From: a virus
Taxonomy: Duplodnaviria > Heunggongvirae > Uroviricota > Caudoviricetes > Straboviridae
Virus record (IMG/VR): IMGVR_UViG_638275429_000001
Span: 23,740-87,739 of that record
Length of the DNA: 64,000 nt
Strand: one strand, 5' to 3'
In this document: positions 6,243-52,461 of the stretch, in pieces
How the letters are laid out: each line of letters begins with the position of its first letter
Position numbering within the stretch: position 1 is the first letter of the stretch
Made by a program: the position numbers and the translations under genes
The notes under the pieces: model-generated
What the model was told of the DNA's origin: nothing
Databases searched by the model: none
The model's input: only the letters and a program-made list of their open reading frames with translations

Positions 6243-6316
6243 AGGGTGTTCCTCCTATGAATGATTATATCATACCTGTAGGCTTGCTGAACTTATTTAA
6301 GTCTGCCTGGCTTCCA

Positions 6317-6424
6317 GGTTTGGCTCTGCCAAACTAGCATTTTTATCCTTTAAGGCCTAATAGATTATATAACCTAAAGGATAAAAAGGATAAATTCGAG
6401 CGAAGCTCGAACTGGCGAAGCCAG
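6317..6424. repeat. 108-bp perfect inverted repeat, copy A (partner at 52354-52461)
   Basis: ggtttggctctgccaaactagcatttttatcctttaaggcctaatagattatataacctaaaggataaaaaggataaattcgagcgaagctcgaactggcgaagccag; reverse complement is identical to 52354-52461; contains three short hairpins and a TTATATAA core. Confidence 0.9.
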
Positions 6425-6532: not shown

Positions 6533-7972
6533 TCACTTGGAGGCCTTCTTCCTTGCTTTTTCTCTAATTTTGATTATCCAATCTTGAACCAGCTCTTGAT
6601 CTTCCGGCGAATTGATGTCTAGAATTCGGCCCAGTTTACGCAGAAGATATTTGTAAGAGAACCGTTCTTTTTCGGTCATTTGATAAAGCGCCTGAAATGA
6701 CTCGCGGTTTCGTTTTATTTGCTTATGGTTGGCTATCGAATCACCGACACATATCTCCGCGTCTGGCAAATATCTCAACATGTATTTCGCCAATTTCATA
6801 TCTGGCACATACAAATTTATCGGTTTGAGAGAATGCTCATTGCGAATATCACAACGGGCGCACAGTTGAAACGCCGGTTCTAGATACTTCGAAACAATAT
6901 AAGCGTCCACTAGTGCATTTTCATCCAATCCAACGACACTTGATAACTCCTTTAGAATCGGAACTTGCCAAGGTGCAGGGTTGTACGAAAAAAGAACCAC
7001 AACATTCGTATGATCGGAATAGTTGTTTAACCCGTGTGGGTTATAAGGAACTTCAATTCCTTTCGGCATCCTCGGACGATATGAGTTTCGGGTGTAAATG
7101 AACTCGCCATTTATCAATGTGTCCAACATGTTTTCGATTCTGGTGTAGTTTGATATACCGTCGACTTCTTTATCGGCTTTGTATCTCGACCAATCGTCGT
7201 CAAACATTACATTGATCTTTACCCGCGCCGTTTTCGGATATACATGGAACGCCAGTCGATTTTTCAACGGAGACTCTTCAAATTCCCATCCGTTAAAATG
7301 CTTCATAACCATGCCGGTAAAAGTTTGTTCGAAGTTTGCTGAGCACACAGTTATTGATTTGAACTTTGACCAATCATCGCTGGAGGCATCGTTCACATAG
7401 TAGCATTGGGTAACACCACCTTCAACCGACAATCGCACTGGCACCCCGGTCAAAAGCGCCTTGTATAATGGGAAAAGAGTCGAATAAATGTCATCGGTTC
7501 CGCGATAGCCATCCAAAGCCATTTTGTTTACTGCTTTTCTATATTCCTCACGAAGCTCCAGCAATCCGGATTCATCTATTTTGCACAACTCAAGTATATG
7601 GCTCTCGACTGATGTCGTGAATGTGAATCGTTCAAAGCTCGTTAACTCTGGAACTTCGTCAATATACAGATTAAAATCTTTAAGCGAATCAATATTGCGT
7701 AATCCTAAAAGTGCAGCGTGCGTTATGAAAATGACATCATTTGACTCCGCCGCCTTCAACACCGCATCATGGACAGATTTTTGACCCTGTCGATTATCGG
7801 TGTCAACCAGTTCACCATCTCCGCCTAAGCCAATGAAATATTCAAACGACTGCTTTGAAAGCTGCCGAGATATGCTGGCGATGATAGCTTTTTCGTTGGT
7901 TTCAAAGATGTGGTTAAGAATAGCGGCAGTTTTGCCTGCCGCTGGAATGGCGGAGAGGGTGTATAGTTTCAC
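6533..7972 (-). CDS. P-loop NTPase of unknown function (479 aa)
   Basis: N-terminal Walker A AIPAAGKT, Walker B-like YIDEVPE; 4-nt overlap with upstream SLOG/DprA-like ORF. Confidence 0.55.
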   Translation of the reverse strand: MKLYTLSAIPAAGKTAAILNHIFETNEKAIIASISRQLSKQSFEYFIGLGGDGELVDTDNRQGQKSVHDAVLKAAESNDVIFITHAALLGLRNIDSLKDFNLYIDEVPELTSFERFTFTTSVESHILELCKIDESGLLELREEYRKAVNKMALDGYRGTDDIYSTLFPLYKALLTGVPVRLSVEGGVTQCYYVNDASSDDWSKFKSITVCSANFEQTFTGMVMKHFNGWEFEESPLKNRLAFHVYPKTARVKINVMFDDDWSRYKADKEVDGISNYTRIENMLDTLINGEFIYTRNSYRPRMPKGIEVPYNPHGLNNYSDHTNVVVLFSYNPAPWQVPILKELSSVVGLDENALVDAYIVSKYLEPAFQLCARCDIRNEHSLKPINLYVPDMKLAKYMLRYLPDAEICVGDSIANHKQIKRNRESFQALYQMTEKERFSYKYLLRKLGRILDINSPEDQELVQDWIIKIREKARKKASK

Positions 7973-8541
7973 AGGTCCAAAAATTCCTTTAGACGTTCAA
8001 TATCGAATTGGTTGTAGAGATTATAACACTCAACCCCATGTCGAAGCGCCAGTTGCCAAGCAGTATTTGTTCCACCTGAAACACCATCCGCCGTTGGAAT
8101 CGAATAGCAAACCAAGAAATCCGACGGCGTTTTCAGGTTGTAACCAAGAACTTGGAAGACATTGCGAGTATGCAATTGCTCGGCACCTCGACTGAGCGAC
8201 CCACCTTTCTTATACACCGGGTGAATCGTTTTCATGATTTCGAAAGCTTTCCAGCTATCGCCGCCGGTTATGATGTTATGGCGTTCATGCTTCGGGGCAA
8301 ATCGACCGTTAAAGCGTTTCCATGGAATATAGACATCAAATTCAGCATGGTTGTCGGGTTTGAGCTCGGGCGCTATCGCCAAAAATCCTTGCTCGAACGC
8401 ATCGTCAGCTCCATCAGCCCCACCAGAGCGGCCAGTATAACCGCGAACAGCCGCAACCGCGGCAATGTCTTTCATAAGCCGACAAATATGTTCGGGAGTC
8501 TCTCGACTCCCTATTCCGGTATAAAATGCCATCAGAACCAA
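7969..8541 (-). CDS. SLOG-superfamily (DprA/Smf-like Rossmann) protein
   Basis: 190 aa; FYTGIGSRETP ... RSGGADGADDAFEQGFL matches DprA/SLOG GSR and SGxAxGxDxxAH motifs. Confidence 0.55.
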   Translation of the reverse strand: MVLMAFYTGIGSRETPEHICRLMKDIAAVAAVRGYTGRSGGADGADDAFEQGFLAIAPELKPDNHAEFDVYIPWKRFNGRFAPKHERHNIITGGDSWKAFEIMKTIHPVYKKGGSLSRGAEQLHTRNVFQVLGYNLKTPSDFLVCYSIPTADGVSGGTNTAWQLALRHGVECYNLYNQFDIERLKEFLDL

Positions 8542-18559: not shown

Positions 18560-20014
18560 TTATTTGATCGATGTGCGACTGCGAACTTGAGCAAGGCTGC
18601 TATTGTATTGAACGCCTTTCAAAGGGTGATGATAGTTGACCAACGCTGATTCAGACATAAGTTCAACAAAACCTTGGCTCAGTTTCACGTTGTAAAGCAT
18701 TTGCGAACCGTCAGCCAATTTGCTGTCGGTGTAGAAGCCACCGTCATCCAGCTTGCGAAGACCCAGTTGACCTTTCTTCGATGCCTTCCATTCAGCGCCT
18801 TTCGGGCACTTGAACACATCATACCAGACACCGTTAATTTTAATTGCAGACATCTTCATTGCCCATTTGCAAGTATCACGGTTAACCATCTGGAGCAACC
18901 CGCCGCCCATACCGAATGCAATGTTCTCAGCAGCCCAACCATTATCAGCCATCATGGTCAGAACTTCATCGATAATTTCCGGGCCATCGATGCCGTCGCC
19001 TTGGATAATGCGGCAATGCTTGTTCAGGACCTTGAAGCCTTTTGAGTTGGTTTCATAACCGAAGATTTCACCAAGAGTCTCGAGGGCATAAGTGATATTG
19101 TCGAACATATCACCAGAGTCCGGTCGAACAATCAGAGTACCACCTTTCGCAATTACTTCATCTTTGTAGCCTTCAATTTCGCGAACGGCACGTTTGAAGT
19201 CGGTAGAATCGTAGACAACAGAGTAAGCGCCAGTGCCGAACAAACGAACAGAGTTCATATAAGCTTCGGTTTCGCGTTCTGCACCCCAGGATGTAACAGT
19301 AGAGTGCTCACGAGCCGGTACAGAAATACCTGCCATCTTAGCGCCATACAGATGCTTCGCGAGATAAAGCGATTCAAAGGTATCGGTACCCATAGAGTTG
19401 TAGAGGTGGGCCATGCCGCCAAGAGCAGCAGATTCACCAGAACTTACGCCGCGTGAACCAAAATCATGCAAACGGGTCATCAGAACAAAGTTGAATTCCG
19501 GAGAATCGACGACCAAATCAGTTGTGTCGATCAAATGCTTGCGGATCATTGCAATGCATTCGCGACTTAGGGTGGCGACCGTCGAGGTGTACCAGACAGC
19601 TCGCAGAATAACCGGCTCGAACCAACCAGCAACCCAGGTGTAAGGTGCTTTACAGCGAACGGTCAGAACGACGTTCTTGACCGGCACAACGGTACCTTCA
19701 GGTACTGCGTCGATTTGGATAGGCAGGCAACCGTGTTTTTGCTGGTATGCGACTACTTCATCCCAACCTTTGCGGTTGAATACATCTTGACCGAAGTGAG
19801 CTTTGCTCATCTCATGCATTTCAGCAACATCTTCGTTGGTGATAATTTCCTGCAGTTTCGTCATCATGTACTCGATGCCGCCGATAACGATGTTATCGAA
19901 TTTTCCGCCACGAGCTTCGACGTAGAAGACCACTTCATCGGTGCCGTCGGGCATTTGGTTCCAATGGGTGATTTTGTAGGAGTCAGTCATTGCGATCAAA
20001 GGAATACGTTTCAT
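18560..20014 (-). CDS. nadV: nicotinamide phosphoribosyltransferase NadV (NAMPT family)
   Basis: 484 aa; hallmark TDSYKITHW motif near N-terminus and NAPRTase-family length. Confidence 0.85.
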   Translation of the reverse strand: MKRIPLIAMTDSYKITHWNQMPDGTDEVVFYVEARGGKFDNIVIGGIEYMMTKLQEIITNEDVAEMHEMSKAHFGQDVFNRKGWDEVVAYQQKHGCLPIQIDAVPEGTVVPVKNVVLTVRCKAPYTWVAGWFEPVILRAVWYTSTVATLSRECIAMIRKHLIDTTDLVVDSPEFNFVLMTRLHDFGSRGVSSGESAALGGMAHLYNSMGTDTFESLYLAKHLYGAKMAGISVPAREHSTVTSWGAERETEAYMNSVRLFGTGAYSVVYDSTDFKRAVREIEGYKDEVIAKGGTLIVRPDSGDMFDNITYALETLGEIFGYETNSKGFKVLNKHCRIIQGDGIDGPEIIDEVLTMMADNGWAAENIAFGMGGGLLQMVNRDTCKWAMKMSAIKINGVWYDVFKCPKGAEWKASKKGQLGLRKLDDGGFYTDSKLADGSQMLYNVKLSQGFVELMSESALVNYHHPLKGVQYNSSLAQVRSRTSIK

Positions 20015-22807: not shown

Positions 22808-23785
22808 TTAACGATTTTTTAGATATTCAAGCATCGCATCACTATAGACGTCAAGAACGAACTGGTTCCATGGTTCCACGTTAACCGCTGATGGCATGCC
22901 GTTTCGGCCAGCTTCTTTTGCAGCAGCGTCAACATCGTCAACGATCTGTTCAAGGCGAGCTTGCACTTCTTTGAATGGCAATTCACCAGCTTTAACCAGT
23001 TTGATTTCTTCGGCATTGGCCAATGGATACTTCAAATCGCCAGTCTGGTAGATTTCGAGCAACTGTAGACCGCCTCGCATCGCATGACTCAAAGCTTTCC
23101 AGTCGATACCTTCGTTGGCTTCAGCTTTACGGGCTCGTTCGCCGTACTCGTTCCAGAGCTTGTCGACAGCACCAGCAAACTCAGCAATTTTAACACCGGC
23201 CATATACTTACGACCCATCATTGTGTAGTACGAGTTAGTCTCTGGTTTTTCGCGATCGACCGTCCAGAAGCAAAATTCATTTGATGGCAGAGGTATTTTG
23301 AGTTCACGCAGACGAGGGTTTTCATGAATCTGAAGCGCATCCATGAAGTCCTTAACCTGTCGCAAAGCGGCCAGTCGAGAACCTTTCACACCATATTTCG
23401 CCGCCTGCTTCATGACATAGCTCATATAAGATGTCATGTTTGTTGTATAGAAACTCGAGCGTTGACTTTGGATAAACTGCCAAATCGCGGAGTCAGAAAC
23501 GATTTTGTCGGTTGGTGTGTGAAGCATATCGAGAGCAGCAGTTTCGCCTTTGACGCACTCATGAATGAATTGCTTAAGCGTAAACATTTCGATATCGATA
23601 TCATCCTTGCTGTTTTTGGATTTATCGTTGCCGGTTGTGATGGAATAACTTGATTTAACTTGTGATAGCAAGATATCTTTCGGATCAGGTATGAAAATGC
23701 CTTTCATATCCAGGTCAGATTCGGGTGTGTTCAGACCGTAAAGGTGAGAGCCGTGCAGACCCTCGAAAATAACTTTTTGCATCAT
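22808..23785 (-). CDS. Pol-beta-superfamily nucleotidyltransferase-like protein (325 aa)
   Basis: N-terminal FEGLHGSHLYGLNTPESDLDMKGIF = hGS...x9...[DE]hDh NTase motif, followed by DIDIE third acidic. Confidence 0.55.
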   Translation of the reverse strand: MMQKVIFEGLHGSHLYGLNTPESDLDMKGIFIPDPKDILLSQVKSSYSITTGNDKSKNSKDDIDIEMFTLKQFIHECVKGETAALDMLHTPTDKIVSDSAIWQFIQSQRSSFYTTNMTSYMSYVMKQAAKYGVKGSRLAALRQVKDFMDALQIHENPRLRELKIPLPSNEFCFWTVDREKPETNSYYTMMGRKYMAGVKIAEFAGAVDKLWNEYGERARKAEANEGIDWKALSHAMRGGLQLLEIYQTGDLKYPLANAEEIKLVKAGELPFKEVQARLEQIVDDVDAAAKEAGRNGMPSAVNVEPWNQFVLDVYSDAMLEYLKNR

Positions 23786-24711: not shown

Positions 24712-25806
24712 TTAAATGCCAGTGAAACGAGATATAATTTCAGCGTGATCATCGAACATACGCGCTCTGTTCTTTTTGTAGATGTGCATAGGCATCCAGA
24801 ACGCAGCTTTGGCATCGTCGTCAGCATTAACAGCCGGCAATTCACCGTTTGGGCCAGGACTGAGAACAATGTAATACGCAACAGTTGGCTTGCAGAATTC
24901 CGCGGTGCGCTTCGGGTGATCGAAAACTTCGTGCGCTTTGATAGAACCGATGATATCTTTTTCTTTGACCTCGATCTTGACTTCCTCAAAAAGTTCACGA
25001 ACAGCACATTGTTGGAAGGTCTCGTTCGCGTTCTTATGGCCACCGGGAAGGGCTAAAGCGTCTTTGCCAGGAGCATGCTTCCGCTCAATGAGCAAAATGT
25101 GGTTATTGCAGGTTACCACAGCATCAGCAGTATTGCAATTCAGAGCTTCGCGATATGGGTAATTCTCGAACTTCGCGAGTTCGTTATCCCACATTTTGCG
25201 CTCTTCCATCAAGCGGTCGCGGAGTTCGCGACCTTCAGTGTTCCAATATACGGAAAGGAAAGATCGCACTGTTGGGTTAATCGGGAATGCGCCGTTGATT
25301 ACGCCAGTTCGAAGAAACTCGTCGCGCATTGGGGTGTTTGAAATATCCGCCCCGTGGTTTTGAACACCCATACATTGAATATGATCCCAGCCGAAAGAGC
25401 GAATCCAATAAGAATCAGCATCTTTATCATAAGCCACCATTGCGACTTTTTCGCCAGCCTTTTCGCCAGCCTGTTCGCGAACTTCCGCCTGCCAACGATC
25501 TTCGTTGTACCGGTAATCCGGTACGTTGCCGAAAGTTACGCGTTTTTGCTCATATGGAGTCAAGTTCTCAGACATCCATTCCTTGAACATTCTAACGCGA
25601 ACCAGCGTAGGCAATGGGTTAATTGTGTTTGGGTAGCAATGAGATGAGCCAAAAACAACAGCTACGTTTTCGGCTGTCTGCAATGCTTTGTAGATAAGCA
25701 TTTCATGACCACGATGGAAAAAGCTGGAAAAACGACCAATTACTACAGCACGATCATAATCATAAGTCATATCATTAACCCCGATTTTTGTAACTGTTGA
25801 TTGCAA
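24712..25806 (-). CDS. natV: bifunctional NMN adenylyltransferase / Nudix hydrolase NatV (NadM-like)
   Basis: 364 aa; [11 protein letters not shown] (GxFxxxHxGH cytidylyltransferase motif) and Nudix box [26 protein letters not shown]. Confidence 0.85.
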
Positions 25807-34175: not shown

Positions 34176-34369
34176 GCTATTAATCTCGTTTGGTTGATTA
34201 TAAGTTTACCGCCAACGACTAATTCGAAGTTAACGATTACCTCATCGCCGTCGTCTTTGAATGAATGAACGATTATGTTTTCACATCCATCCCCGAGCAA
34301 TCCAATAAAAGCTTCTTCAAAGACCCGGTTCATCACCGGGCCAGGTTTTTGCCATTTATTTGCTGCCAT
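34172..34369 (-). CDS. hypothetical small protein (start uncertain)
   Basis: ORF trimmed to internal Met to avoid long overlap with macro gene. Confidence 0.3.
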   Translation of the reverse strand: MAANKWQKPGPVMNRVFEEAFIGLLGDGCENIIVHSFKDDGDEVIVNFELVVGGKLIINQTRLIA

Positions 34370-34844
34370 CGAATTCCACCACAGTGATGTCGATGTTAGG
34401 AGTAACCTCGTCAATAATCGCGGAAATCTTACTCCAATCTCCGCGGGCGAGGCCAGCACCGATCATTGGAATACACATTGTCATATTGCTTCCGCCAACA
34501 CTCGTCTCTGCAACCGAATCGTTAAGCATAGTGAAAGTAGACCGGACAGCGTCATATGAAAGCATGTCGGTTGGGTCCCAAAATGTTGCCTGGGTGTACA
34601 TGTTGACGCCGCAGCTGGTACGACCTTCAACGTTTATCAGCGCTGCCTGAATAGTTCCGAGCTTATTGCGGTCGCCGCTAACAGTTTTCAAGTCCATTAC
34701 GTACAATTGAGGAAGTCTTTCACGAACTTCTTTCGCGATGCCGGAACCCATTCGGTTGAAAATGTTGCAACCATGGCCAAAGATGTCATATTTCCCTTCA
34801 AGGAACAGACTGATAGCATTACCCTTAACATATTGAACGATCAT
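34356..34844 (-). CDS. macro domain protein, TARG1/OARD1 (DarG-macro)-type ADP-ribose hydrolase
   Basis: 162 aa; GNAISLFLEG...DIFGHGCNIFNRMGSGIAKEV and MCIPMIGAGLARGDWSKISAIIDEV...IDITVVEF align with human OARD1 motifs (GDLFSCP...CRMGAGIA; MPRIGCGLDRLQWENV..IEEVF..I.I.VY). Confidence 0.65.
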   Translation of the reverse strand: MIVQYVKGNAISLFLEGKYDIFGHGCNIFNRMGSGIAKEVRERLPQLYVMDLKTVSGDRNKLGTIQAALINVEGRTSCGVNMYTQATFWDPTDMLSYDAVRSTFTMLNDSVAETSVGGSNMTMCIPMIGAGLARGDWSKISAIIDEVTPNIDITVVEFDGSK

Positions 34845-40419: not shown

Positions 40420-40590
40420 TCAGGCATTTAGCTGGATAACGTCTGCATCCAGAGTTACGGTGTCTTTGATAGGGAATTCAGTACCAACTGGCAGCATTGG
40501 GTCGGCGCTTTTCAGTACGTGGAAGTAAGAAGCAACCTTTTTGACTGCCAGTTCGCCGTGACCGAAATTTACCAGGTGAGTTACGTTAGA
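40420..40590 (-). CDS. small hypothetical protein (start uncertain)
   Basis: ORF after repeat variant 40611-40670. Confidence 0.3.
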   Translation of the reverse strand, partial: SNVTHLVNFGHGELAVKKVASYFHVLKSADPMLPVGTEFPIKDTVTLDADVIQLNA

Positions 40591-40678
40591 CATAATGATT
40601 TCCTCATGTTTTTGTTTGGATTGATTTGATGGAGTAATCATATCATTGAATACCAAAACATGAACATGCTATTGAAAA

Positions 40679-41134
40679 TTATGTCATAATCACAAACTCG
40701 ACACCATGGGTACCTGCCCAGTCATAGATTTCTTGGCGCTGGTGGCGGGATGTGAGGGTGTATTCGCTTTCGTCAATCATCAGGAATTTGACTTTAGGAC
40801 AACGGTCAGTAAGCTCGCTAATTGTTGATATCCGGATGTCTCCACGCCATTGATATGATACCATATCTTGAACGTGTCGTTTGTTTGCCGAGTTCATCGT
40901 GATTATCCGAGCGCCACCTTGAGCTGATACTTCGTTTGCCAAATGGAGCAAACCTGTCGTTTTGCCGGTCATGCGACCTAAGTTGAGGTGGATAGTCCGA
41001 TGCTCGCGTAGAAAACTCGACTTTGACTGGCTCATTTCCTGTATACAACCTGAAGGTTTATTAGCGTAAGACCTGTTGATTGCGTCAATAAAGAAGGTTT
41101 TGTAGTTGAAAAATCGTTCTTTTACGATAGACAT
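40679..41134 (-). CDS. small P-loop NTPase (151 aa)
   Basis: Walker A LGRMTGKTTGL, Walker B FLMIDESE. Confidence 0.5.
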   Translation of the reverse strand: MSIVKERFFNYKTFFIDAINRSYANKPSGCIQEMSQSKSSFLREHRTIHLNLGRMTGKTTGLLHLANEVSAQGGARIITMNSANKRHVQDMVSYQWRGDIRISTISELTDRCPKVKFLMIDESEYTLTSRHQRQEIYDWAGTHGVEFVIMT

Positions 41135-41168
41135 GCTTGTCTCCTTAACGGCCTGCTGGCCAGTGGGT

Positions 41169-41194
41169 ATGAAAAAGGCTCCATTGTGGAGCCT
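41169..41194 (-). terminator. Rho-independent terminator
   Basis: AGGCTCCACAATGGAGCCT + TTTTTCAT on minus. Confidence 0.55.
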
Positions 41195-41198
41195 TTAA

Positions 41199-41402
41199 TT
41201 ATTCGGTTTCGATAGCAAGATCGATCCGGGCTGAAAGAATCAACTGATATGCTTTCATTGCATCAAGTTGTTGAACCATCAGTTCTTGTTGCGCAAATTC
41301 CAGCTGAGGGAAGATTGGAGAACCGCCGATAAAGCTGTCCAGAGCTACGATCTTATCGGTAAGATCTCGGAGTTCAACCTGCATACGATCAATATGTGAC
41401 AT
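41199..41402 (-). CDS. hypothetical protein (67 aa)
   Basis: ORF. Confidence 0.4.
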   Translation of the reverse strand: MSHIDRMQVELRDLTDKIVALDSFIGGSPIFPQLEFAQQELMVQQLDAMKAYQLILSARIDLAIETE

Positions 41403-41412
41403 TGTTATTTCC

Positions 41413-41622
41413 TTAATAAAGTGCCCGGAGTAGAGCCTGTTGTTTACGTTTCAATTTCTGTTCTTCAGTGAGCTCTTCCTCAGGGATTTGCTCTTTAACT
41501 ACGCCAACTTTCTTTTTCGGACCAGTGCTATCCCACAGTGGTGAGTTGTACCAGTTTGCGTTATTTCCATTAGCGCCGCCACGACCCTCTCGAGCGTGTG
41601 ATTTCTCGTGCATCATTGCCAT
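41413..41622 (-). CDS. hypothetical basic protein (69 aa)
   Basis: ORF. Confidence 0.4.
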   Translation of the reverse strand: MAMMHEKSHAREGRGGANGNNANWYNSPLWDSTGPKKKVGVVKEQIPEEELTEEQKLKRKQQALLRALY

Positions 41623-41639
41623 GCGTGTTTCTCATTAAT

Positions 41640-41716
41640 TGGTGGTCCCTATTGGATTCGAACCAATGACCAACGACTTAGAACGACGTTGCTCTGTCCA
41701 GCTGAGCTAAGAGACC
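41640..41716 (-). tRNA. tRNA-Arg (anticodon TCT)
   Basis: 7-bp acceptor GGTCTCT/AGGGACC + A + CCA; D-arm GCTCAGCTGGACAGAGC; anticodon loop GTTCTAA; T-arm ATTGG-TTCGAAT-CCAAT. Confidence 0.6.
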
Positions 41717-41733
41717 AATTGAACGAAAGGCTT

Positions 41734-42183
41734 TTAACCAGCCTGAAGACTATCTCGAACTCTGTACAGATTTGAGCAAAATTCTTGCTCTGTTAGAACA
41801 GTTTCGTTTTTCTTGTTTTTGCCCATTGAATGGGTCAATGAAGAATTCCGGGTTGCCAGAATAGCTCGTTTGAAACCAGAATTCTTCGAAACTTCGTCGT
41901 AAGCGCGGCTAATAAGTTCCGAATACGCGTCACTTTGTCGGTGCATCGGTTTGCCACGCCAATAGAGAGTTTGGTCTCGCCACCAGTTTTTCTTTTTGCC
42001 TTTAAACTTCGCAGCTTTACCGACTAAAGAGCAAACATGCTCTTGCATCTCAGGCGATTTGAATTTAAGAGATTGCAAAAATCCTTCAATCGAGGCGCAA
42101 CGAACACCATCAATATAGAATTCATGAGGAGCGAAGTTACTTAATGCGCAGGATGGCCAAGAGGCACCAGAACCGATGTCCAT
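41734..42183 (-). CDS. NADAR-domain protein (YbiA/DUF1768 family; NAD/ADP-ribose-associated N-glycosidase)
   Basis: 149 aa; SNFAPHEFYIDGVRCASIEGFLQSLKF matches NADAR N-terminal signature (SNFyp..F..dG..y.S.EhyfQa.Kf). Confidence 0.6.
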   Translation of the reverse strand: MDIGSGASWPSCALSNFAPHEFYIDGVRCASIEGFLQSLKFKSPEMQEHVCSLVGKAAKFKGKKKNWWRDQTLYWRGKPMHRQSDAYSELISRAYDEVSKNSGFKRAILATRNSSLTHSMGKNKKNETVLTEQEFCSNLYRVRDSLQAG

Positions 42184-42199
42184 AACAAATATCTCACTT

Positions 42200-42568
42200 T
42201 TAAAGGGATTGTGTGAAAGTTCGCGTGATTACGTCCCGTTGTTGCTCAGGAGTTAATGCATTAAAGCGTACGGCATAACCGGAAACACGGATGGTTAGTT
42301 GGGGATATTTTTCTGGATTAACGATTGCATCTTCCAGGGTATTTCGGTCAAGAACATTTACGTTGAGATGCTGACCACCTTCAACAGTTGGCTCCGGCTG
42401 AACGTCAAAGAAACGTCCTGGGCGTCCACGAATAACCGAATCTTCGACGATAGTGTCGATTTCATAAGTTTTCGAAGCGATCACCTTGGCATTATTTGTC
42501 TGATCATCTACCAGGAAAATTGATCCATGATCATTCGAGCCATCAAGCAATTGGAAACCAATTAACAT
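42200..42568 (-). CDS. grcA: autonomous glycyl-radical cofactor GrcA/YfiD homolog (start uncertain: ATG at 42568 or TTG at 42637)
   Basis: C-terminal [61 protein letters not shown] nearly identical to E. coli GrcA; RVSGY glycyl radical motif. Confidence 0.85.
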
Positions 42569-42593
42569 ATTGTCCTCACTTTGTGGTGTAATC

Positions 42594-42672
42594 TGGTGGA
42601 TTTGGACCGGTCTCGAACCGACATCATCAGGATGCAAAGCAACCTACGGTCTTCCCATTAAACGACAAATCC
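42594..42672 (-). tRNA. tRNA-like element, type undetermined (atypical anticodon arm)
   Basis: perfect acceptor GGATTTG/CAAATCC + A + CCA, D-arm with GG, TTCGAGA T-loop; anticodon stem has mismatches; overlaps N-terminal homology region of GrcA ORF. Confidence 0.35.
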
Positions 42673-42684
42673 ATGATATTAATT

Positions 42685-42759
42685 TGGTGGCCCTGGCAGG
42701 AATCGAACCTGCTACGAGCGGTTATGAGCCGCCTGCTTGAACCGTCTAGCTACAGGGCC
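42685..42759 (-). tRNA. tRNA-Met or Ile2 (anticodon CAT)
   Basis: acceptor GGCCCTG/CAGGGCC + A + CCA; anticodon arm GGCGG-CTCATAA-CCGCT; T-arm GCAGG-TTCGATT-CCTGC. Confidence 0.7.
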
Positions 42760-42966
42760 TAGAGACGAAAAAGCCCATAACGGTCGATTGACAAGTCATG
42801 GGCATTGTTTTAATTAGGACGCTTGCTAGGGTCTCGAACCCATCACGAATATACGCACGTGTAGACTGCCAGACAACAAGTACTTAGTAAGCTAATTAAT
42901 GGTACTCACGGTGCACCGCTTTCACATATTTCGCTATTTTCCCACGTCTAAGCAAGCGATTGAAAT

Positions 42967-43043
42967 TGGATGCGACGGATGGATTCGAACCACCGATTTC
43001 CGGGATATGAGCCCGACGAGGACGACCTCTCCTCTACGTCGCA
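42967..43043 (-). tRNA. tRNA-Met or Ile2 (anticodon CAT), second copy
   Basis: acceptor TGCGACG/CGTCGCA + T + CCA; anticodon arm TCGGG-CTCATAT-CCCGG; T-loop TTCGAAT. Confidence 0.6.
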
Positions 43044-45385: not shown

Positions 45386-45461
45386 TGGTACACCGTCTGA
45401 GATTCGAACTCAGAACCAACGGATTAAAGGTCCGCTACTCTGCCAATTGAGTTAACGATGC
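45386..45461 (-). tRNA. tRNA-Lys (anticodon TTT)
   Basis: acceptor GCATCGT/ACGGTGT (2 wobble) + A + CCA; D-arm ACTCAATTGGCAGAGT; anticodon arm GCGGA-CCTTTAA-TCCGT; T-arm CTGAG-TTCGAAT-CTCAG. Confidence 0.65.
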
Positions 45462-46025
45462 TCTTAAAAACTGTCTATCTTTATTTCTTTCGGTATTAAA
45501 GATTCGCAAAACGTCATCGAGCTGAGTTGAAGTGTTATCTACCCACTCGCCGTTTGCACCAAACATAAAATGCAGTTGTTTTTCTGTCTTAAAGCGGTCA
45601 TGGGTAAAGAAGTATGTTTGAATTTTATAATCACGAAATGGCGAATAACTTTGATATGTAGCCAATCGGTCGTATACTGATATGGTGCTGCCAATTTTAA
45701 AATGTCCAGGCCAAGCCGGATTGGTTAACACATATACATAACCTTCGCGAATACTAGAAGCTTTACCTAATCGATTATATTTAACATTTAGTAATGATCT
45801 ACGAACGTAGTTCAATTGCGAGCAAACACTCTTAATATAAGATGAGTTTTTGCGTAAAAATGGCAACTTAGTTGTGCGATATATGTGATTGAAGAAAATT
45901 CTTTTAACGAGATCATCTGTTATTTCAAAGTCGTAACAAGCGCACTCAAGTTCTAGATAAGTTGAATATCGAGCAATCACATCATTCATAATAAATTTCC
46001 ACAATTTAGTGCAACGGAATTCCAA
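45435..46025 (-). CDS. T5orf172/MUG113 (GIY-YIG-like) domain protein, putative homing-endonuclease-like mobile gene in tRNA cluster
   Basis: 196 aa; C-terminal GYVYVLTNPAWPGHFKIGSTISVYDRLATYQ matches T5orf172 signature (GxVYxxxN...KIGxT....R). Confidence 0.5.
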   Translation of the reverse strand: MEFRCTKLWKFIMNDVIARYSTYLELECACYDFEITDDLVKRIFFNHIYRTTKLPFLRKNSSYIKSVCSQLNYVRRSLLNVKYNRLGKASSIREGYVYVLTNPAWPGHFKIGSTISVYDRLATYQSYSPFRDYKIQTYFFTHDRFKTEKQLHFMFGANGEWVDNTSTQLDDVLRIFNTERNKDRQFLRASLTQLAE

Positions 46026-50415: not shown

Positions 50416-50446
50416 GATACAAAAAAATGCCCTCCGTAGAGGGCAT
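50416..50446 (-). terminator. Rho-independent terminator downstream of 57B/acb1-like gene
   Basis: ATGCCCTCTACGGAGGGCAT + TTTTTTTGTATC on minus. Confidence 0.65.
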
Positions 50447-50874
50447 CAGTCAGCATCAAGTGCTTCCATATACTCATGTGAGCTAACGATTGGAAATTCG
50501 TAAGAACCCATAAAAGATGAAGAGCCTACATCTTTAGCGATTGTGATATGAGGAATGTATTCGTCAAAGTCGTAAGATGCTCCTAAAAGCATACCTTGAG
50601 CGAATCGTTTATTCATGTGGCTGGATTCGAAAGCCAGAACCAAAACGTTTTTGGTTGGAGTCTCAAATACGCGTAATTCTGCGCTATTAGCTAACAGTGT
50701 CGGCATATCTGATGGAATAAACGGAATCTCTTCACGGCTATAAATGATGGTTGAGTGAAGTTCATCGCGAGGCACTGGATTAAAAATCGGCAGCGCCTCT
50801 TGAATCTTTTGGATTGCATCCAACGTTTCTTCACTAAACCGGCAGGCTACATATGTACCTACCGGAGTTTCCAT
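50446..50874 (-). CDS. 57B: 2H phosphoesterase at the gene 57B position; Acb1-like (anti-CBASS cyclic-oligonucleotide phosphodiesterase) candidate
   Basis: 142 aa; two H-x-T/S-x motifs (HSTII, HITIA) typical of 2H/LigT superfamily; located 57B-57A-1 exactly as T4 acb1. Confidence 0.6.
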   Translation of the reverse strand: METPVGTYVACRFSEETLDAIQKIQEALPIFNPVPRDELHSTIIYSREEIPFIPSDMPTLLANSAELRVFETPTKNVLVLAFESSHMNKRFAQGMLLGASYDFDEYIPHITIAKDVGSSSFMGSYEFPIVSSHEYMEALDAD

Positions 50875-52327: not shown

Positions 52328-52353
52328 AAAACCACCTTTAATTAAAAACTTAA

Positions 52354-52461
52354 CTGGCTTCGCCAGTTCGAGCTTCGCTCGAATTTATCCTTTTTATCCT
52401 TTAGGTTATATAATCTATTAGGCCTTAAAGGATAAAAATGCTAGTTTGGCAGAGCCAAACC
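52354..52461. repeat. 108-bp perfect inverted repeat, copy B (partner at 6317-6424)
   Basis: exact reverse complement of 6317-6424; sits between gene 2 stop and gene 3 start. Confidence 0.9.

Follow-up and report, generated by a model that had tools for sequence, protein, structure and literature searches.

Does the small gene at the edge of this phage's tRNA cluster encode an enzyme that strips ADP-ribose from DNA? If so, from which base, and in response to which host toxin? A sequence-only reading had proposed a NADAR-domain protein at this place, starting from an open reading frame and a peptide quoted from it. Both are present: the frame runs from an ATG at 42183..42181 to a TAA at 41736..41734, and the peptide, SNFAPHEFYIDGVRCASIEGFLQSLKF, comprises residues 15-41 of the product. 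All coordinates refer to the window, that is, the whole stretch of 64,000 nucleotides analysed, which begins at position 23740 of the record. From 40500 to 43000 the window matches Aeromonas phage 44RR2.8t (AY375531/NC_005135; Straboviridae, Biquartavirus) with 100% identity, and the open reading frame coincides exactly with CDS ST44RRORF117c, which GenBank lists as '30.3', a hypothetical protein similar to T4 NP_049816.1. The features discussed are collected in Table 1.

The composition of 30.3 is that of its surroundings (43.6% GC, compared to 43.7% for the window), and homologs of the product are abundant, forming 3547 clusters at 90% identity, with 1142 representatives of 50%-identity clusters. 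Comparison with the ortholog of phage AS4 shows 74.5 synonymous differences at 95 sites and 21.5 nonsynonymous differences at 352 sites, a pN/pS of ~0.08. 30.3 is a genuine gene under strong purifying selection, not a chance open reading frame.

The placement beside the tRNA cluster, also part of the sequence-only reading, is borne out: 30.3 sits at the edge of a cluster of 17 tRNAs, with gaps of 17 nt to tRNA-Arg on its downstream side and of 16 nt to vs.6 on its upstream side. The 16-nt gap suggests that vs.6 and 30.3 are co-transcribed; a promoter and terminator scan around 30.3 gave counts not above those in shuffled sequence. Does the position itself carry functional meaning? avDM5, AS4 and Escherichia phage EcS1 likewise carry the gene at their tRNA clusters; in AS4 (L005), which lacks vs.6 and is otherwise syntenic, it lies directly between tRNA-Met and tRNA-Arg. 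In RB43, 30.3 is located between vs.6 and 30.2/ligase, in T4 between 30.2 and 30.4, and in a KVP40-like phage it is remote from any tRNA. As the position varies in this manner among T4-like phages, the tRNA adjacency most simply reflects a plastic region, and we rejected a functional link to the tRNAs, the arrangement being unconserved in the latter three phages.

The open reading frame with T5orf172/MUG113 domains that lies within the tRNA cluster extends, as annotated, 27 nt into tRNA-Lys at its 3' end; it is a possible insertion of mobile or endonuclease-like character. One tRNA (42685..42759) is called Met by ARAGORN and Ile in GenBank, the latter presumably with its CAU lysidine-modified, as happens in T4. 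A 67-aa open reading frame located two genes downstream of 30.3 matches crAss001_48, a family of small proteins shared with crAss-like phages.

Table 1. Features of the window and related bacterial loci. Positions are window coordinates, except in the last row, where they follow the locus to which they belong.
Feature	Position	Strand	Description
gene 30.3 (adfN ortholog)	41734..42183	-	stand-alone phage-type NADAR domain, 149 aa; predicted DNA guanine-ADP-ribose glycohydrolase
Glu33 codon	42085..42087	-	equivalent to catalytic E36 of T4 AdfN (pairwise alignment)
Lys40 codon	42064..42066	-	equivalent to K43 of T4 AdfN; conserved >=90%; aligns with YbiA SEHYFQAQK motif
His118 codon	41830..41832	-	phage-NADAR marker histidine; T4 equivalent H123; conserved >=90%
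C-terminal alpha-helix, residues 132-148	41740..41790	-	AlphaFold2 model; aligned to T4 gp30.3 end
vs.6	42200..42568	-	small autonomous glycyl-radical 'spare part' protein; Pfam Gly_radical; directly upstream of 30.3
tRNA-Arg	41640..41716		neighbour of 30.3
67-aa ORF	41199..41402	-	Pfam crAss001_48, E=1.2e-18
tRNA-Met or tRNA-Ile	42685..42759	-	ARAGORN Met (CAT anticodon); GenBank tRNA-Ile
tRNA-Lys	45386..45461		overlapped by the following ORF
ORF in tRNA cluster	45435..45989	-	184 aa; T5orf172/MUG113 domains, E ~1e-10
tk.4 (adfM ortholog; NP_932459.1)	34356..34844	-	TARG1/DarG-like macrodomain
NadV (NAMPT)	18560..20014	-	NAPRTase + NAMPT_N domains
NatV-like, bifunctional NMNAT-Nudix	24712..25770	-	confirmed in window
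ORF049c	7969..8532	-	RefSeq 'DprA-like'; Pfam DNA_processg_A marginal, E=0.18; no NCBIfam match
gene 57B	50446..50874	-	annotated; labelled 'RNA ligase'
112-bp intergenic repeat	6313..6424; 52350..52461	opposite strands	GenBank '44RR; 6 copies' in genome
bacterial His-type NADAR loci	L034 3001..3462; L065 3001..3459; L011 5001..5441; P0124		

Is the 30.3 product a NADAR protein? The sequence-only reading had looked to a significant match with PF08719 (NADAR/DUF1768), and none is found when Pfam is scanned with hmmscan, even at E<=1. The product instead matches Pfam PF08010 (Phage_30_3) with E=1.8e-55 and 187 bits (gathering cutoff 36) over 137 of the 138 profile positions, as well as phrog_652 (E=1.3e-52). 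Because Pfam files the phage clade separately as PF08010, the PF08719 miss does not reflect absent homology. Among NCBIfam models, only TIGR02464, the YbiA-type N-glycosidase of riboflavin intermediates, was retrieved, below threshold (residues 11-48, E=0.037, 14.3 bits compared to a cutoff of 73.7), and a single-sequence phmmer search of PDB sequences returned noise only. Neither the 30.3 product nor T4 AdfN matched a PADLOC model, the 2023 library apparently being devoid of NADAR-type DarG1.

A profile built from 57 diverse members of the 30.3 family retrieved E. coli YbiA as its top match among PDB sequences (hmmsearch, E=0.0065), and hhalign of this profile with full-length YbiA yielded 95.4% and E=1.9e-8 over 136 columns. 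The AlphaFold2 model of the 30.3 product (pLDDT 89.4, pTM 0.86) displays the alpha+beta fold of YbiA and NADAR proteins, with five core helices and flanking small beta-hairpins; in a Foldseek search with this model YbiA was the best PDB match. The predicted membership of the 30.3 product in the NADAR superfamily of enzymes, visible only by profile-profile and fold comparison, is solid, and the NADAR call of the sequence-only reading was right despite the absent PF08719 match. There is a methodological lesson in this: a PF08719 scan alone would have led to the false dismissal of a correct assignment.

Glu33 is conserved in at least 90% of 57 family representatives and corresponds to the Glu within the YbiA motif SEHYFQAQK; together with Lys40 it provides the Glu and Lys that characterize the N-terminal helix of NADAR domains (E..FQ..K). 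In T4 AdfN, activity is lost in E36A and impaired in K43A (PMC11825919). The residue on the last strand separates the NADAR types, being His in phage NADARs, Glu in the YbiA type and Asp in the DarG1 type (PMC11125620, PMC12945103). The 30.3 product carries His118 within 'LTHSMG', corresponding to H123 within 'LKHSIA' of T4, and hhalign places His118 within one residue of the Glu in YbiA 'VEH'. The architecture, which comprises the core domain alone and retains its C-terminal helix intact, is likewise that of phage NADARs. In RB69, a frameshift deletes the equivalent helix, and AdfN activity is reduced there (PMC11825919).

What would such an enzyme act upon? The 30.3 product is 42% identical to T4 gp30.3/AdfN (E=7e-37), collinear over the full length. 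Schuller et al. 2023 established that DarT1 ADP-ribosylates the guanine amino group in single-stranded DNA, a modification reversed by NADAR antitoxins, while thymidine is the target of DarT2 and is restored by a macrodomain. T4 gp30.3 hydrolyses guanosine-ADPr in vitro, but not thymidine-ADPr (Cihlova et al. 2024, PMC11125620), and leaves cytidine-ADPr in place (PMC12945103). Johannesman et al. 2025 (Nat Commun) renamed the gene adfN, for 'anti-DarT factor NADAR'; it is necessary and sufficient for the DarTG1 resistance of T-even phages, and AdfN de-ADP-ribosylates DNA (PMC11825919). The T4 protein does not bind DarT1, does not counter DarTG2, and is fully active only during T-even infection, for which another phage factor is possibly needed (PMC11825919). 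Independent confirmation came from a transposon screen, in which adfN proved conditionally essential when the host carries DarTG1 (HIDEN-SEQ preprint). Hydrolysis of guanine-linked ADP-ribose on DNA, as proposed in the sequence-only reading, is the activity to be expected from orthology to T4 gp30.3/AdfN. The toxin had been misnamed: DarT1 modifies guanine, and DarT2, to which the modification had been ascribed, acts on thymidine, which phage NADARs do not restore.

We consider 30.3 the Biquartavirus ortholog of adfN, encoding a NADAR-fold N-glycosidase that would undo DarT1-type guanine ADP-ribosylation of phage DNA; judging from sequence and from the analogy to T4, we assign this reading a probability of roughly 0.77. 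The product would be an 'orphan antitoxin', a minimal N-glycosidase made during infection, and would cleave the bond that joins ADP-ribose to the guanine N2 amino group in phage DNA. Modification by a host ADP-ribosyltransferase of the DarT1 type would thus be undone, and replication could proceed. By analogy, we infer for the 44RR2.8t protein the same activity as for T4 AdfN, and for Aeromonas hosts the deployment of a guanine-specific DNA ADP-ribosyltransferase. The 44RR2.8t protein is 58% diverged from that of T4, and may not share the latter's toxin spectrum or any dependence on a phage co-factor. Searching the literature for DarTG in Aeromonas produced nothing relevant, none of the 80 loci (0/80) retrieved when genomes were scanned with the family profile came from Aeromonas, and tblastn against plasmids gave a single match, in Euzebya, with uninformative context.

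Could the enzyme act on something other than DNA? Iyer et al. 2022 proposed for phage NADARs generally, before experiments were available, that their targets are 'mostly' soluble, and with NadV and a NatV-like protein the window supplies possible partners for an enzyme that mainly processes soluble ADP-ribose derivatives, such as immune signals of the cADPR type or the by-products that arise when NAD+ is broken down. The T4 ortholog, however, is a DNA guanosine-ADPr hydrolase and necessary for DarTG1 resistance. T4 moreover possesses AdfN without NadV or NatV in the regions read, which argues that 30.3 is independent of them, and in the window 30.3 is 17-22 kb from both genes, with no neighbourhood link. 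A mainly soluble substrate in place of DNA repair is, in our view, unlikely. Equally distinct from DNA repair would be a role as an enzyme of the YbiA kind, an N-glycosidase that destroys reactive intermediates of riboflavin biosynthesis. YbiA is indeed the best match both by sequence profile and by Foldseek against the PDB, and the weak TIGR02464 match is the sole one in NCBIfam. Yet its score falls far short of the cutoff, the last-strand Glu of the YbiA family is replaced by His, no riboflavin genes are found near 30.3, and a role on ADP-ribosylated DNA has been demonstrated for the T4 ortholog; we give the riboflavin role a negligible chance.

The location at the edge of a tRNA cluster raises the question of RNA. 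Might the physiological substrate be guanosine-ADP-ribosylated RNA, for example the phage tRNAs, with the enzyme shielding translation from an RNA-targeting host ADP-ribosyltransferase? 44RR2.8t, avDM5, AS4 and EcS1 have 30.3 inside their tRNA cluster or at its edge, and in vitro T4 NADAR can free RNA of guanosine-ADPr. It does so less efficiently than the NADAR of E. coli C7, the known in vivo phenotype concerns DarT1-modified DNA, and there are no tRNAs near the gene in T4, RB43 or the KVP40-like phage. The tRNA clusters of T4-like phages are furthermore hyperplastic regions that gather unrelated small genes, of which the T5orf172-type open reading frame is an example. An RNA substrate seems quite improbable on this evidence. 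We hold it to be highly improbable that the tRNA-embedded NADARs of Biquartavirus and Kagamiyamavirus have moved away from DarT1, to serve mainly guanosines in RNA (phage tRNA) or to oppose an Aeromonas enzyme other than DarT that specifically ADP-ribosylates guanine (ScARP-, pierisin- or YarT-like); if true, this would constitute a shift of substrate or target inside the AdfN family.

If 30.3 opposes DarT1-type modification of guanine, is thymine covered as well? The sequence-only reading had pointed to a TARG1-like macrodomain, which is probably tk.4. Its matches among PDB sequences include the macrodomain of SCO6735 (5e3b, E=4.5e-5) and human TARG1/OARD1 (E ~1e-3); it also matches the DarG model of PADLOC (E=9.5e-5), and shares 33% identity with T4 Tk.4 (E=3e-28). 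Pfam-A misses it, and no macro domain was found when Pfam was applied to ~35 open reading frames of the window; RefSeq gives the label 'Tk.4' only, and phrog_335 is labelled 'phosphatase'. In T4, tk.4 was named adfM (2025), its deletion sensitising the phage to DarTG2 (HIDEN-SEQ preprint). By analogy to T4, tk.4 is the predicted functional companion of 30.3, although the two genes are unlinked (7 kb apart), and NP_932459.1 can be renamed AdfM-like macrodomain. The idea that the phage reverses both guanine- and thymine-linked ADP-ribosylation agrees with the published pairs AdfN/DarTG1 and AdfM/DarTG2 of T4, of which the window carries both phage orthologs. With T4 AdfN and AdfM published, dual reversal is already documented in T4.

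The sequence-only reading had further assembled a macrodomain, NADAR, SLOG, NadV and NatV into one set, with the macrodomain in the same region as 30.3, and considered both the combination undescribed and phage-encoded NADARs rare. The macrodomain, NadV and NatV are present, while the SLOG candidate, presumably ORF049c, is weak (E=0.18). The macrodomain does lie in the window, but operon-level linkage is lacking, with 7 kb between it and 30.3, and 22 kb to NadV. NadV and the NatV-like protein form an NAD+ salvage pair of the KVP40 type, similar to NARP2, 5 kb apart; between them are unannotated open reading frames (phrog_14624, phrog_9809, phrog_9314). In the survey of Iyer et al. [quoted passage not shown] Nor are phage NADARs rare: the survey found them in 27% of myoviruses, and we found a 30.3-type homolog in 1510 of 50,697 phage records. 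30.3 represents an already known and widespread kind of phage counter-defence gene, experimentally characterised in T4.

Elsewhere in the window, the annotated gene 57B is oddly labelled 'RNA ligase'. Its T4 counterpart is Acb1, an anti-CBASS nuclease (HIDEN-SEQ preprint), and by this analogy 57B may be a third known counter-defence gene in the window. An intergenic repeat of 112 bp is found twice.

What follows for Aeromonas phages? NP_932472.1, currently a 'hypothetical protein', can be renamed AdfN-like NADAR, a predicted DNA guanine ADP-ribosylglycohydrolase with anti-DarTG1 function; identical or near-identical copies occur in phages 31, Riv-10, L9-6 and avDM1/2/5. The presence of both 30.3 and tk.4 in an Aeromonas phage suggests that the dual anti-DarT1/anti-DarT2 kit of T4 reaches distant Straboviridae, and implies that defences which ADP-ribosylate DNA press on Aeromonas phages. 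Such pressure would be relevant to the use of phages against A. salmonicida in aquaculture, as phage therapy.

How does 30.3 compare with NADAR systems already described? E. coli YbiA (PDB 2B3W; PF08719/TIGR02464) belongs to a different family, with a last-strand Glu and a role as N-glycosidase on riboflavin intermediates. It is chromosomal, forms an operon with dinG and is LexA-controlled according to Cihlova et al. 2024 (PMC11125620); 30.3 of 44RR2.8t remains far below the YbiA-family thresholds. The DarG1 NADARs (BC4488 family; E. coli C7, Geobacter lovleyi, PDB 8BAT) use a catalytic Asp on the last strand, where 30.3 has His, and possess an N-terminal extension of a helix and beta-sheet from which their electropositive DNA channel is formed (PMC12945103). 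30.3 is without this extension: its product starts at the core domain, the family consensus beginning with 'MDI..'. Neither DarT1 (DUF4433) nor any other ADP-ribosyltransferase is encoded beside 30.3, the neighbours being tRNA-Arg, vs.6 and small phage open reading frames; 30.3 is therefore not part of a toxin-antitoxin module of the DarG1 type. Identity as a DarG1 antitoxin is ruled out by the missing DarT1 neighbour and by His118 in place of the catalytic Asp.

His-type NADARs resembling gp30.3 were also found in bacteria (Bacillus sp. M6-12, Evansella clarkii and a megaplasmid of Euzebya pacifica), so that the 'phage NADAR' clade is not restricted to phages. In Evansella clarkii the gene adjoins that for RNase H1, and in the isolate genomes of this species and of Bacillus sp. 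M6-12 there is no ADP-ribosyltransferase beside the NADAR gene. Some metagenomic NADAR proteins consist of two or three tandem copies, or are fusions.

AdfN(Bas32) and AdfN(Bas60), from T5-like phages and Vequintavirinae, are phage orphan NADARs like 30.3. Both neutralise DarT1 and are guanosine-specific; unlike the gp30.3 clade, they represent other NADAR branches and independent acquisitions, and they are active without phage infection (PMC11825919). T4 AdfN cannot substitute for the DarG1 antitoxin in uninfected cells (PMC11125620, PMC11825919). It is to this T4 protein that 30.3 of 44RR2.8t corresponds most directly. Both consist of a single core NADAR domain of ~150 aa with Glu, Lys, His and a C-terminal helix, both are encoded by T4-like myoviruses (Straboviridae), and both belong to PF08010, the 'phage NADAR' family of de Souza and Aravind. 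They differ in host genus, Aeromonas for 44RR2.8t and Escherichia for T4, and in gene position: in the former, 30.3 is flanked by vs.6 and tRNA-Arg at the tRNA cluster, in the latter by 30.2 and 30.4, close to the ligase gene.
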